DNA of 64,000 bases, from NCBI GenBank assembly GCA_963842525.1, contig CAWJGT010000013.1:1-64000 (forward strand), read 5' to 3'. A program made the position numbers and the translations under genes. The notes beneath the pieces were generated by a model. The model had not been told where the DNA came from. It was given only the letters and a program-made list of their open reading frames with translations, and searched no databases. The DNA comes from an uncultured Holophagales bacterium. Its GTDB lineage: Bacteria > Acidobacteriota > Thermoanaerobaculia > Multivoradales > UBA5704. Below, piece by piece: positions 4,527-8,491 of this stretch; position 1 is the first letter of the stretch, and every line of letters starts with the position of its first letter.

Positions 4527-4628
4527 CGCTAACGGTTCGCGCATCACCTGCAGAACCGCGCGTTCCGAAGCCGCTCAACGTTCTACCACGGGCGGCGCGG
4601 TTCTGTCAGGTGCATGCGCATGTTAGCC
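4527..4628 (-). other. Integron attC recombination site (102 bp)
   Basis: Minus strand GGCTAAC ATGCGCATGCACCTG...CAGGTGATGCGCGAACC GTTAGCG: imperfect palindrome with AAC/GTT ends, 12 bp after the stop codon of the ICMT gene. Confidence 0.8.
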
Positions 4629-4640
4629 GGCATGTCGCGA

Positions 4641-5222
4641 TCACCAAACGCCCGGAACAAGCCGCTTCGTTCGCGCCGTGTACTCCGCGTACTGGTCGCC
4701 GAACTGGTCGAGCATCATCTTCTCCTCCGCACGGACGCGGAACGCGAACAGGATGCCGAATGCGATCAAGTACAACGGACCTGCCACCCAATTGGGAATC
4801 ACGAGCGCTTGACCGATCGAGTAGAGCAGCAACGCCATGTACATCGGATGGCGGACTTTGCAATAGACGCCATCGGTGATCAGTCGATGCTGTTCTCGCA
4901 CCTCGAGGGTAACCGACCAGTTCGAACCCAGATCAGCGTGGGACCGGTGGAAAAACCAAAGACCAACCGCGAGGCAAGCGATCCCGGCAATGAGGGGGCT
5001 GGCCCGAAGTGGATACTCCGCGAACGAGAACGCTGGCGACGCGATCCAAATCAGAGGAACGAAGAACCCGAGCCAGGCAAGAGTCAGGAGGACCGTTTCC
5101 ATCGTCCCTTTGCGGCTCGTGACGACCTTGACACCTCGACTTCGGTGACCGTGCGGGGCGCGAATGGCAATCATCACCGCGCTGGCAATCAGAATCGTCG
5201 CCTTCGCAGTCCAGGGATTCAT
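4641..5222 (-). CDS. Isoprenylcysteine carboxyl methyltransferase (ICMT/PEMT) family protein, gene cassette
   Basis: LITDGVYCKVRHPMY, EEKMM..FGDQYAEY...TKRLVP; multiple TMs; bounded by attC sites. Confidence 0.88.
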   Translation of the reverse strand: MNPWTAKATILIASAVMIAIRAPHGHRSRGVKVVTSRKGTMETVLLTLAWLGFFVPLIWIASPAFSFAEYPLRASPLIAGIACLAVGLWFFHRSHADLGSNWSVTLEVREQHRLITDGVYCKVRHPMYMALLLYSIGQALVIPNWVAGPLYLIAFGILFAFRVRAEEKMMLDQFGDQYAEYTARTKRLVPGVW

Positions 5223-5284
5223 GGTCGGGCCCTCGTCCTCGAGATCATCGGTCGCTCACCTGTCCTCGGACGTTGATGTCCGGC

Positions 5285-6083
5285 GCCGAGTAGGCCAGGG
5301 GGTCTCACGACCCCCCCAGCCCCTCTAAGAACCGTACGTGCGAGTTTCCCCGCATATGGCTCAAGCACCTCAAAGGCCGATCTTACTCGACCCGGTTGCC
5401 TGTTACCTACTCCTGGGCAACATTTGCGATACTAACATGTAGTAGGCACCAGCTCTGGCCACAGCCAGAGGAGGGAGTGCACAGACGGGTGGTCGAACCA
5501 CCTCCATCTCCCATTTGCTTTCCCCGTTTAAGATGTTCTCCATACGCTCTCGCAAAGAGGCACCAGTCGGACGTCTGCTCACTTTCGTGCCGGGTGACGT
5601 TGCCCGTATCTGCCCCATTACAGGACGGCGTTCGCTTCTTCCGACCTCCCAAACCCGCATCTCCAACAGTTCCCCTTACGGTTCGCCTTCCCCCTGTGGG
5701 AGAGATACGGGGTTACCACGTTCCGCTTCTGAAGTCTTCGCGCTGTCGACCGGGAAGCACCGTTGACCACGAGGTGGCACCGTTAAATCCACCTCCGGCT
5801 TCCGCACCTTTTGGTCTGAGCTTGTCAGCCACTTTAGCTCGCCGCCATTGACGGTCGTTGCACAGGTTCACATGTGTTTACCATACCCGCTACCTAGCCA
5901 TCACCCGGCTTGTGGCTGCCAGGAGGACAGGTTCCTCACGGTTCCCATCCCGCATGCCTTCGCATGCTTCTGTACATTGTCAGGGCCGCTCTTTATTCAG
6001 GCCCTTAGGTTCACCCGGTGGTACGGGTGGTTCCGCCTCCAAGAGGGGAACAACTTCATATATAAAGCGACATCGTGTCGCAG
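5285..6083 (-). ncRNA. ORF-less group II intron (probably IIB type) inserted in an attC site
   Basis: Minus strand: 5' end CTGCGACACGATG; domain V GAGCCATATGCGGGGAAACTCGCACGTACGGTTC; domain VI hairpin ending CCTACTCGGC; EBS1-like loop at 5771-5795; no RT ORF. Confidence 0.88.
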
Positions 6084-6141
6084 TAACGGGCCTGATCTTC
6101 AGCGGCGGCGCCAGCCGTCCGCTGCAAGGCCCGTGTTAGGC
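6084..6141 (-). other. Integron attC site interrupted by the intron (remaining GCC at 5284-5282)
   Basis: Minus strand GCCTAACACGGGCCTTGCAGCGGACGG...CGCCGCTGAAGATCAGGCCCGTTA, then the intron; removing the intron restores GTTAGCC. Confidence 0.8.
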
Positions 6142-7304
6142 TTCCTGCTTCGCTGATTCCTTCTCTGTAGACGTACTAGTATGCCCCATTGACTGCTATT
6201 GAGAAGCTTACGTTCATCCACGATCCCATCGAGCACGCAACCAAGAAGCCCACCTATACTGCCCAAAGCCGCAGCCATATCTAAGGGGGCACCCGCCGCT
6301 AGGCTTATCGAGACAGAAAACGCTGCGGAGGCCAGTGAGGAGGAGCTACGGCCGATACTTTTCAGGGCTTCTAGCCTAGAGGCGACTAGACTTCGTCGCA
6401 GCTCATCAACGGCTGGATCAATTACCGAATCAGCGAGCGTTCGTAAAACGGCGTCCAACTCTCTTATGGGAGTAGCGGGGTCAACCTGAGAAGAGAGACT
6501 ACGAAGAGCCACTCTAAAGGATTCAAGCTCACTATACCGATCTTCGCGGATTCGAAGTAACTCCTCCAAAGGTAGGTCGTCAGCGCGCGGTAGGTATCTG
6601 GTCAATACCATGGCGGAAAGTCGACGCTCTATGTACTGATCATAATCATGAACCTCGGTTTCCAATTGCCGCGCTTCCTCGAACAGCATGCGAACTCTAA
6701 AGGTAGCGTCTTGAAACCTCGGAAGCCAGGAAAATGGAGCAACACTCTCCCGTTCGGCTACGATGGAGAGCATAAGGAGGTATTGAAAAAACAGGTAGTT
6801 TGCGAGCCGTTCCCGCCTCTCCAGAGGCCATGACAAAATGTTCTTGTTTCTCGCAGCTAAAAACTTAGTTACAGTAACCAGGTCTGAAAGACACGCAGCA
6901 GGCAGATCGTAAGCCCGATCAACAACCTTCATGACGTTCAGCCACCTACGTTCGTATCTATCATCGAGGTTTGAAATTAGATCTATCGAGGCTAGGTTCC
7001 ACGAATCAATCGCTTCCAAGTCCTTTCCCGCAGTCAACCTTAGAGGGATGGCCAGACCTTCGCGAACCAGAAGGTCGAGACTTGGGAAGCTTTCCTGAAG
7101 ACTTGTAAAATATCTTTTGAGCCGCTGAGCAAAGATTGGACTCTCTGTTCCGATCTCTTCAAAACTTCGTTGCTCTCGCTCTATAAATTGAGAGTCATGT
7201 ACCGCGAGGACGCGCACTCTGTCCGAATACAGAATTGCCGTCTGTAACGCAGCAAGGAAGCCCTCGCCGGCCTCAGGGTAGAGCAAGGTATCTTTACCTA
7301 TCAT
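6099..7304 (-). CDS. Hypothetical cassette protein (possibly DUF6236-like)
   Basis: 401-aa ORF, visibly more AT-rich than its flanks; N-terminal LLYP..AILYSDRV, LPLEELLRIRE motif, hydrophobic Gly/Ala C-terminal helices; reads into the attC. Confidence 0.7.
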   Translation of the reverse strand: MIGKDTLLYPEAGEGFLAALQTAILYSDRVRVLAVHDSQFIEREQRSFEEIGTESPIFAQRLKRYFTSLQESFPSLDLLVREGLAIPLRLTAGKDLEAIDSWNLASIDLISNLDDRYERRWLNVMKVVDRAYDLPAACLSDLVTVTKFLAARNKNILSWPLERRERLANYLFFQYLLMLSIVAERESVAPFSWLPRFQDATFRVRMLFEEARQLETEVHDYDQYIERRLSAMVLTRYLPRADDLPLEELLRIREDRYSELESFRVALRSLSSQVDPATPIRELDAVLRTLADSVIDPAVDELRRSLVASRLEALKSIGRSSSSLASAAFSVSISLAAGAPLDMAAALGSIGGLLGCVLDGIVDERKLLNSSQWGILVRLQRRNQRSRKPNTGLAADGWRRR

Positions 7305-8089: not shown

Positions 8090-8491
8090 TCAAAAGTCGC
8101 GCGGTGGCCTTAAAAATCCGGCGGAGTCCCGAAATATCGGGCACAGTCCGGAAAAGTCGGACGTAGCCCTGAAATGTCCGGTGTAGTCCGGAAAAGTCGG
8201 TGGTAGTCCGGAAAAGTCCGGCGTTGTCCTGAAAAGTCGCGCGTAGCCCCGAAATGTCGGGCGTAGCCCGGGAATGTCGCGGTCCGCCGCCCAGCCGGAC
8301 CGCCAGAGAGATAGCTCCACGCCCTCGCGCAACGCGGGCAGGGCCTCGACCGGGAAGCCGCCGCCGGAGAGGGTGGCGGCCATCCGGATCTTCCGCTCGG
8401 CCTGGGAGAAGACCTCCCGCGCCTCGGCCAGCCGCCGGCTTCGCTCGGCGTCGGCTCCGGGCGCCGGGGCGCGCGAATCGAGCTCGCTCAC
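8090..8491 (-). CDS. Short ORF or gene remnant; ~65 plausible helical residues, then runs into the 20-bp array
   Basis: GTG start overlaps the stop of the upstream dehydratase; RRLAEAREVFSQAERKIRMAATL helix. Confidence 0.35.
   Translation of the reverse strand: MSELDSRAPAPGADAERSRRLAEAREVFSQAERKIRMAATLSGGGFPVEALPALREGVELSLWRSGWAADRDIPGLRPTFRGYARLFRTTPDFSGLPPTFPDYTGHFRATSDFSGLCPIFRDSAGFLRPPRDF
8091..8280. repeat. Tandem array of ~9.5 imperfect 20-bp units, consensus GAAAAGTCGG-NCGTAGTCCN
   Basis: Units start at 8091, 8111, 8131, 8151, 8171, 8191, 8211, 8231, 8251, 8271. Confidence 0.85.

Follow-up and report, generated by a model that had tools for sequence, protein, structure and literature searches.

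How a group II intron came to lie inside the recombination site of an integron gene cassette, and whether it can still leave that site, is the question raised by the first 64,000 nt of contig CAWJGT010000013.1 from an uncultured Holophagales bacterium of the Acidobacteriota (assembly GCA_963842525.1; this whole stretch is referred to as the window). A first-pass annotation of this DNA had described a minus-strand element without a reverse transcriptase (RT) gene that interrupts an attC site. The element, at 5285..6083 on the minus strand, is very probably a decayed, non-autonomous copy of a CL/IIB1-like group II intron lineage that is specialised on integron attC sites.

Rfam matches and 28 related copies identify the 799-nt sequence, 5'-CUGCGAC...CCUACUCGGC-3', as a group II intron lacking an RT-encoding open reading frame (ORF). 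Part of domain I (5897..6030, minus strand) matches the model group-II-D1D4-7 (RF02012; 82.6 bits, E 1.9e-15), while domains V and VI match RF00029 (58 bits; 5285-5364, minus strand). In the alignment to the latter model, domain V (5329..5362, minus strand) is a 34-nt hairpin of the form GAGCC...GAAA...GGUUC with an AGC triad, a GAAA loop and one A·C mismatch, and domain VI (5285..5328, minus strand) holds a bulged branch-site A at 5291, within CCUACUC and 6 nt before the 3' end. Domains I-III of the lineage form 115 consensus pairs in the alignment of relatives, 89 of which show compensatory changes; the covariance-model searches and fold that had been called for thus both speak for the identification. 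The longest ORF within 5285-6083 reaches no more than 151 amino acids (aa) and none resembles an RT. A remnant of domain IV, left after deletion of the ORF, lies at 5399..5561 (minus strand), as seen from split BLAST matches (1-~540/570 and 686-799) and the alignment; at this position the ORF-bearing relatives carry ~1.4 kb of additional sequence. The ends are fixed by the 28 copies, which share the start CTGCGAC and the end CCTACTCGG(C/T) and have unrelated flanks, and the extent, strand and ORF-less nature given by the first-pass annotation are exact.

The intron splits an attC. The 5' part of the site (6084..6141, minus strand), recognised by sequence, hairpin scan and an attC profile (match at C13:6147-6084, E 1.7e-10), comprises R'' GCCTAAC (6141-6135), a bulged L''/L' stem and the GTTA of R' (6087-6084), while the GCC at 5282..5284 (minus strand) completes R' and opens the downstream cassette, with G5284 as intron-binding site 3 (IBS3). 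The consensus R''(RYYYAAC)...R'(GTTRRRY) is present, and the site is an imperfect palindrome with bulged bases in an array that follows cassette ORFs. Excision of the intron would yield GTTAGCC, the reverse complement of the R'' GGCTAAC of the attC at 4527-4628, and the boundaries obtained from the 28 copies confirm the proposed insertion exactly at GTTA/GCC. With the insert in place only the GTTA of the 7-nt R' box stays paired, leaving 4 of the 7 R-box pairs. The hairpin scan finds only one attC in the window besides this one (6081-6141), namely the uninterrupted attC of the neighbouring cassette (4527..4628, minus strand; sequence and hairpin scan), with R'' GGCTAAC and R' ...CCGTTA/GCG. 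The latter sequence is a perfect target for exon-binding sites 1 and 3 (EBS1 and EBS3) of the intron and is unoccupied, in line with the suggestion that it represents a second potential target.

The gene of the downstream cassette (4641..5222, minus strand) codes for an ICMT/PEMT-family methyltransferase (Pfam PF04140, 2.8e-13; PF04191, 8.9e-13). The upstream cassette ORF (6099..7304, minus strand; ORF list and Pfam search) encodes 401 aa without a Pfam family, has ~51% G+C compared to 67% for the genome and ends with its stop codon within the attC. Both lie on the intron strand. The intron also shares its strand with the longest abutting ORFs at each of the ten other attC loci for which long flanks were available, and the attC stem carries a bulged A in the 5' arm of this strand. 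The strand of the flanking ORFs and the position of the bulged A therefore place the intron in the attC top strand, sense to the cassettes, which upholds the orientation claimed from the window alone.

The 28 elements with both ends were compiled from nine genomes of the same bacterial family (Acidobacteriota) and include 13 ORF-less copies, 13 with an RT gene (2216-2234 nt), one interrupted by an insertion (5.4 kb) and one with another internal deletion (1017 nt). Positions -5 to -2 of the 5' exon are C in 28, G in 26, T in 27 and T in 28 of these sites. Position -1 is A in 20, G in six and C in two, compared to 11 A, 14 G and 7 C among 32 unoccupied attCs of the window's own genome (G000); A is thus present in 71% of occupied and 34% of unoccupied sites, an enrichment predicted by the U in EBS1. 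The first base of the 3' exon is G in 25 of the 28, mostly with GCG next. A crude hairpin test is passed by 18 of the 28 restored target sites. When scored with an attC profile derived from 29 unoccupied attC-like sites of G000, 24 of the 28 are recognised, as opposed to two of 274 control CGTTA/G sites elsewhere in the genome, where CGTTAG occurs 286 times, 12 of them (~4%) within attC-like sequence. The association with attC exceeds chance. The question of whether all copies sit at attC, posed with the first-pass annotation, is hence answered in part: 24 of the 28 do by this profile and four do not.

Recognition of the target can be traced to a hairpin, GAGGUGG-AUUUAACGGUG-CCACCUC (5771..5795, minus strand), the loop of which exposes UAACGG (5785-5780), complementary to CCGUUA, the last six nucleotides of the 5' exon (CCGTTA, IBS1). 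Six-base complements of the respective exon, of many different sequences, are found in the homologous loop (intron nt 283-344) of 29 out of 59 relatives, these being the relatives from the wider RT clade with a called 5' end (51-59% identity), with 13 groEL-type introns outside the scan range on account of a large 5' insertion. The stem shows compensatory changes (alignment columns 355-383), and the family member L052 combines a UAACGU loop with an exon ending in ACGUUA. By this covariation the UAACGG loop is EBS1, and the pairing predicted for the TAACGG hairpin (5795-5771) lies where it had been placed. The candidate for EBS3 is the C at 5745 (minus strand) in GGUCGACAGC; among 686 alignment columns its own, 409, agrees best with the opening base of the 3' exon, the two being able to pair in 19 of 23 introns (17 Watson-Crick and two G·U). 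The exon pairing of the window copy is complete (7/7). An EBS2, sought as a pairing to exon positions -7 to -16, was recognised in nine of 26 relatives, at a distance of 61-68 nt on the 5' side of EBS1. The non-attC copy L063 has a 6-nt match in the EBS2 region by eye. Across the lineage, EBS1 UAACG (with a sixth G) pairs with the last five to six nucleotides of the attC top strand (CGTTA) and the EBS3 C with the following G, and insertion therefore falls between GTTA and GGC of R', 3 nt 3' of the integrase crossover and in cassette orientation.

The RT of the full-length parents (P0001, 507 aa) contains RVT_N, RVT_1 and GIIM maturase domains and no HNH domain, and passes TIGR04416 (346 bits). 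Its best match in the PDB is the T.el4h RT (6me0_C; E 3e-156, 524 bits), compared to 114 bits (4e-32) for the class C GsI-IIC RT and 134 bits for LtrA. The introns of T. elongatus are of the CL/IIB1 type (PMC2882425). The match to T.el4h, the absence of an HNH domain and the fold of domains I-III therefore place the lineage, as judged from its sequences, in the CL/IIB1 type and not in IIC, a class assigned by these comparisons rather than by a tree of named class references and with CL1 and CL2 left undivided; the IIB-type assignment of the earlier annotation is supported accordingly. Membership in classes E or F is unlikely, with a GAAA domain V loop here and a 5-nt loop in those classes (PMC3753933).

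A quick RT tree with midpoint root, in which some rows are duplicates and L114 and some others were dropped (longest ORF <380 aa), gathers all 12 attC-labelled rows in one 21-row clade (SH-aLRT 94). Eleven of its rows are the Acidobacteriota lineage and the other ten form a clade from Thermodesulfobacteriota, the introns of which sit after GTTAG, GTTGG, GTTAGG or CCGTTA of attC-like sites and have matching EBS1 loops. At L074, in a metagenome-assembled genome of the Desulfatiglandales, two introns stand in tandem or are nested: one finishes in ..CUACUCGAC, and the next, with the start UUGCGAC.. or GUGCGAC.., follows without a gap.

The termini of the lineage depart from the group II consensus GUGYG...AY. 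All 28 elements start with CTGCGAC, while 27 end in CTCGGC and one in CTCGGT, giving CUGCG...GC and, once, ...GU; the non-canonical ends remarked upon in the window copy are thus real and conserved. Fifty relatives have both ends called: G1 occurs with ...AC or ...AU in 33 and A1 with AC in two, and a pyrimidine at position 1 is accompanied by a penultimate G in 11 of 11 (UU..GC in four, CU..GC in three, CU..GU in three and UC..GU in one), the remaining four rows being mis-calls or odd cases, with automated end-calling wrong for at least L103, L143 and L122. The pyrimidine-1 forms are scattered over several separate parts of the RT tree. From these sequences the terminal deviation looks compensated, the first and penultimate bases covarying across relatives. 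A contact between the first and penultimate nucleotides is known from the yeast intron ai5gamma, and the terminal covariation fits it. A search of the literature, with most subscription journals outside its coverage, returned no description of CUGCG ends or of the present lineage. UUGCG..GU ends have been reported for the intron UHB.I2 (PMC7923331).

The window's own genome (9.95 Mb, 67% G+C, 34 contigs) contains five intron matches. Two further full-length copies, 87% identical to the window copy and one indel apart from each other, are located at C22:19420-20232 and C9:379595-380408, and fragments occur at C22:2560-2761 (5' piece) and C34:603835-604003 (3' piece). Matches are present in 36 of 92 genomes of the same family and, at E <= 1e-10, in four of 401 genomes of a phylum sample, the own genome included. 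The 13 ORF-less copies (799-817 nt) are 86-100% identical over their full length, share the same domain IV and sit at 13 different sites in nine genomes of three genera; RT-bearing relatives occur in at least three of the genomes that carry them (G046, G047 and G058). One complete chromosome holds three identical full-length copies at three different attC sites, evidence of recent movement. Judging by the shared domain IV, a single deletion gave rise to the ORF-less form, which spread afterwards, and T. elongatus shows the same pattern (PMC2882425); the movement of the ORF-less form to many sites implies that it would have been mobilised in trans. RT-encoding parents, which the first-pass annotation had asked for, were found in sister genomes, and the proposed mobilisation in trans is therefore probable for the lineage, with its ORF-less form at 13 sites, but unlikely at present for the window copy, which looks decayed and is without a cognate RT in its assembly.

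Several of these copies deserve individual mention. L003 (G000:C9:379595-380408) is an intact ORF-less copy at the non-attC site CCGCTA/CTGG, with one EBS1 mismatch and a mismatched EBS3; this ectopic insertion has the same sense as a 481-codon ORF without an NCBIfam match and falls close to the 3' end of that frame. In L064 (G055:C2:31800-38300), a full-length member located in an attC, domain I is broken by ~3.2 kb with a 479-codon ORF, presumably an insertion sequence. L062 (G058:C21) and L063 (G058:C20), along with L153/L154, have in common a unit of TTN, a full-length intron and 1.54 kb at 99.6-99.96% identity. This unit begins 3 nt before the intron, exactly at the attC G/TT crossover, and has at its right end a small hairpin that is not an attC; it could stem from the move of a cassette carrying the intron or from another kind of duplication.

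Whether the window copy remains a functional ORF-less ribozyme, spliced from the cassette mRNA and open to mobilisation in trans as the first-pass annotation had supposed, depends on features that point in opposite directions. Domain V with its AGC triad and GAAA loop, the bulged A of domain VI, EBS1 and EBS3 are all in place, all seven exon pairs can form, and the sister copies in the same genome are near-identical at different sites, which suggests recent mobility. Against this stands the scar of a 14-nt deletion at 5742..5743 (minus strand), seen in the alignments where other copies read CAGGUACCUAACCC. The missing nucleotides are kept in all 26 aligned relatives; their loss takes the CCUAAC strand opposite UAUGG together with parts of three helices just 3' of EBS3, and leaves 11 model pairs gapped (10-11 conserved pairs removed) whereas the six other family members have no such gaps. 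The strands UAUGG...CCUAAC adjoin paired helices in 26 copies, and soil contigs show additional letters at 5742. The deletion is taken to have destroyed one of the two halves of the zeta receptor, the partner of the domain V GAAA loop, zeta-zeta' being a GAAA/11-nt interaction in some group II introns (PMC3494683). The A at 5357, which creates the A·C mismatch of domain V (Rfam pair mark, alignment), is a G in the other copies, and all contigs covering this place from three RNA runs have 5357 T>C, a DNA run having no cover there. The genome yields 15 maturase matches, yet a cognate RT was not found in the 96%-complete assembly, the best match being 33-35% identical to the RT of the parents, and the perfect target 1.5 kb away (4527-4628) is empty. 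Because of the 14-nt loss, the mismatch in domain V, the lack of a cognate RT and the empty target, the window copy is most likely inactive; its splicing or mobilisation at present is unlikely, and the proposal of a working ribozyme appears improbable.

None of the sequencing runs contains at least half of the sampled words of the stretch (shares of 0.11-0.18). The contigs from three soil metatranscriptomes (X3, X14 and X16) and from one soil DNA run extend over intron-like sequence alone, with 80-99% likeness, and with the exons uncovered they contain no exon-exon joint of the window locus and are uninformative on the splicing of this copy; the metatranscriptome contigs may also include DNA carry-over. 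One RNA contig (record 23) ends exactly at intron nt 1, although a contig cannot show an RNA end.

The attC specialisation of the lineage has to be weighed against the simpler idea that these introns recognise nothing but the 7-nt pairing and insert at any CGTTA/G, the bias towards attC reflecting survivorship after insertions in genes were purged. The lack of EBS2-IBS2 pairing at attC sites (for the family representative), the ectopic copies outside attC (that on C9, at CCGCTA/C in the 481-codon ORF, and L063) and a preference for A at -1 that follows base pairing are all compatible with this idea. It sits poorly, however, with the small attC-like share (~4%) of the genome's CGTTAG sites as against 24 of the 28 insertions; a spliced intron in sense orientation should moreover often be tolerated in genes, intergenic CGTTAG sites exist, and attC R' boxes of this genome are occupied by a second, unrelated intron family as well, suggesting that attC DNA is intrinsically accessible. 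Survivorship as the whole explanation is less likely than not. That the element belongs to the known IIC-attC introns of the S.ma.I2 type is excluded in practice: insertion at the 3' foot of the attC hairpin recalls these introns, which do so on the other strand (PMC3001079), but the RT of the parents scores 524 bits against that of the IIB1 intron T.el4h and 114 bits against a class C RT and has an RVT_N domain, the ribozyme measures ~650 nt with a 6-nt EBS1 and a 34-nt domain V, and the insertion is in the top strand and in sense, whereas IIC-attC introns occupy the bottom strand against transcription (PMC3001079). RT class, ribozyme size and strand all rule out such membership. Co-option of the intron by the integron, for instance to control the downstream cassette (promoter, terminator or RNA switch) or to slow cassette excision, would accord with the outward promoters known in IIC-attC introns (PMC3001079) and with the R' box reduced to four paired nucleotides. 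Conservation of the window's cassette-intron pair was not seen, though, and the window copy displays decay in place of constraint, which makes co-option very improbable.

In addition to the missing EBS2-IBS2 pairing, several points weigh against a decayed copy of an attC-specialised lineage, the preferred reading. The four sites L003, L054, L059 and L063 fail attC profile scoring, and the profile was seeded through a profile of occupied sites, making the 24 of 28 a not fully independent count. The loci and the kindred genomes are not independent either, some records being duplicates (L071=L052, L072=L053, L069=L028). Seven paired bases cannot explain the bias towards attC, and survival of harmless insertions could account for part of it. 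As to decay, the deletion could be an assembly error, with no read of the genome across it, and the helper RT could be located in the unassembled 3.6%. The zeta receptor was assigned by the UAUGG/CCUAAG motif and by position, without recourse to a solved structure of this intron, and given a maturase some ribozymes can cope with a weaker zeta contact.

On the preferred reading, a single ~1.4-kb deletion in domain IV generated the 0.8-kb derivative, copies of which then came to occupy many attC sites across at least nine genomes, with the RT of full-length relatives presumably supplying mobility in trans. As in other endonuclease-less introns, the RNA would reverse splice into single-stranded or melted top-strand DNA and be primed at replication forks. 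A factor beyond the seven paired bases, which may be the hairpin context, contacts of the RT or survival in a harmless site, would favour attC. The window copy may have come by the same route and subsequently have lost the 14 nt of the zeta receptor and acquired the domain V mismatch; with its helper RT missing from the genome, this copy has most likely become inert. A bolder view may be offered tentatively, of an integron-specialised CL/IIB1 clade, formed by the Acidobacteriota lineage and its Thermodesulfobacteriota sister, that homes into the top strand of the attC R' box through EBS1 and EBS3 as a sense mirror of the IIC-attC introns, has a C1...G terminal pair in place of G1...A and spreads between genomes in an ORF-less form akin to miniature inverted-repeat transposable elements. 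Landing 3 nt inside the downstream cassette, such an intron could therefore travel with that cassette when it is moved by the integrase.

The integrons of this genome provide the setting. There are 56 attC-like matches, which are clustered, and three clusters lie beside identical genes for a 325-aa tyrosine recombinase (G000:C3:356673-357647, C9:~1900160 and C25:~539082). With 238 bits on TIGR02249 (cut-off 265) and no counterpart of model positions 178-235, these recombinases are the best integrase candidates in the genome and may serve these integrons; a bona fide integron integrase is absent from the window. The window locus is a small integrase-less cluster of two attCs which adjoins ordinary chromosomal genes (MMPL, lipid A acyltransferase). 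Split matches to the integrase model at G000:C9:1070920-1071162 (model positions 94-174) and 1073750-1073893 (168-215), 2.6 kb apart, adjoin six attC-like sites (C9:1074608-1077565) and perhaps derive from an integrase gene broken by insertion. The second, unrelated group II family is represented at G000:C3:360452-362487 (L151:153-2188) by an intron with a group-II-D1D4-6 match (96 bits), a 451-aa RT and GUGCG...GAC ends. The first 70 nt are identical in its three copies, with further 5' junctions at C25:512331 and C11:179932, and it sits in the attC top strand, in R' one base past the crossover (..CGT/TGAGA). Two other features of the window are a run of ~30-nt units, ccgacttttccggactac..., upstream of a small ORF (8090-8320, minus strand) and a 113-nt near-perfect palindrome just before the MMPL-family gene (515-627; predicted -84 kcal/mol).

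These results matter in several respects. Use of attC sites had been attributed to a single narrow lineage of small class C introns, always in antisense, whereas here a much larger ribozyme class uses the other strand by base pairing; together with the second unrelated family this makes attC a general landing pad for retroelements in environmental integrons. This bears on cassette expression, with an intron inside the transcript, on cassette mobility, with a split R box, and on the travel of introns between genomes. The lineage also constitutes a natural experiment on the contact between first and penultimate nucleotides, with the pyrimidine-1 and penultimate G combination in 11 of 11 relatives and 28 of 28 family copies, and it supplies a compact IIB1 intron, the short and fixed target of which invites trials in targeting. 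As for the window copy, it is probably no more than a fossil of such attC-intron biology.

The introns previously associated with attC invite the closest comparison. IIC-attC introns make use of a bulged stem-loop and 3-4 nt of pairing. Like the present lineage, S.ma.I2 and its kin have an endonuclease-less RT and insert specifically at the foot of the attC hairpin within an R box; they differ in being class C introns in the bottom strand, antisense to the cassettes and at the R'' end (PMC3001079), whereas the present introns are CL/IIB1-like, lie in the top strand in sense and target the R' end (GTTA/GGC) with an EBS1 of 5-6 bp plus EBS3. The premise that attC is used by IIC introns alone no longer stands: a IIB1/CL1 intron lying next to an attC in the direction of the cassettes was published in 2021 (PMC7923331). 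This intron, UHB.I2 from an integron contig of a soda lake (Sonbol and Siam 2021, PMC7923331), resembles the present lineage in being IIB1 with a CL-type endonuclease-less RT, in lying in cassette orientation directly after an attC and in its non-canonical UUGCG..GU ends. By its authors' account it stands apart as a single copy with poor exon conservation, no EBS3 bulge and no proposed pairing to the R' core, in contrast to 28 copies with a CGTTA/G target, ORF-less derivatives and C1...GC ends. The same paper mentions truncated class E introns in a cluster of attC sites lacking integron integrases (CALIN) and cites an Enterobacter cloacae intron in the attC top strand, a single case belonging to class C (PMC7923331).

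Outside integrons, the TeI3/TeI4 introns of T. elongatus (Mohr et al. 2010, PMC2882425) are likewise CL/IIB1, include the closest solved RT relative (6me0_C) and have given rise by one domain IV deletion to ORF-less copies spread by the RTs of full-length relatives, and the EBS2 of TeI4h is also hard to identify. They differ in that their EBS motifs have diversified to many targets within one genome and their RTs have an endonuclease (En) domain (PMC2882425), whereas in the present lineage EBS1 is fixed on attC, the RT lacks En and the ORF-less form occurs in at least nine genomes of three genera. The IIB1 introns at groEL stop codons (EcKTE56.groEL, Avi.groEL; PMC12584367) likewise form a lineage tied to one conserved context, but there the target is the stop codon of a housekeeping gene, domain I has a large 5' insertion and the ends are mostly GUGCG...AC (PMC12584367). 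Introns of this type occur at 13 loci of the same broad RT clade (L084-L086, L088, L098, L106, L115, L116, L121, L139 and L146-L148; 5' exon ...ATGATGTA/); they follow ...ATGATGT(A/G), the groEL stop-codon context of PMC12584367, and two start with AUGCG. What is already known thus comprises IIC-attC introns, one IIB1/CL1 intron beside an attC, ORF-less introns spread in trans and specialised IIB1 lineages, while the new elements are an entire lineage that pairs in a defined way with the R' core, the sense-strand geometry of this lineage, an ORF-less derivative that crosses genomes, compensated termini and a second attC intron family in the same genome.

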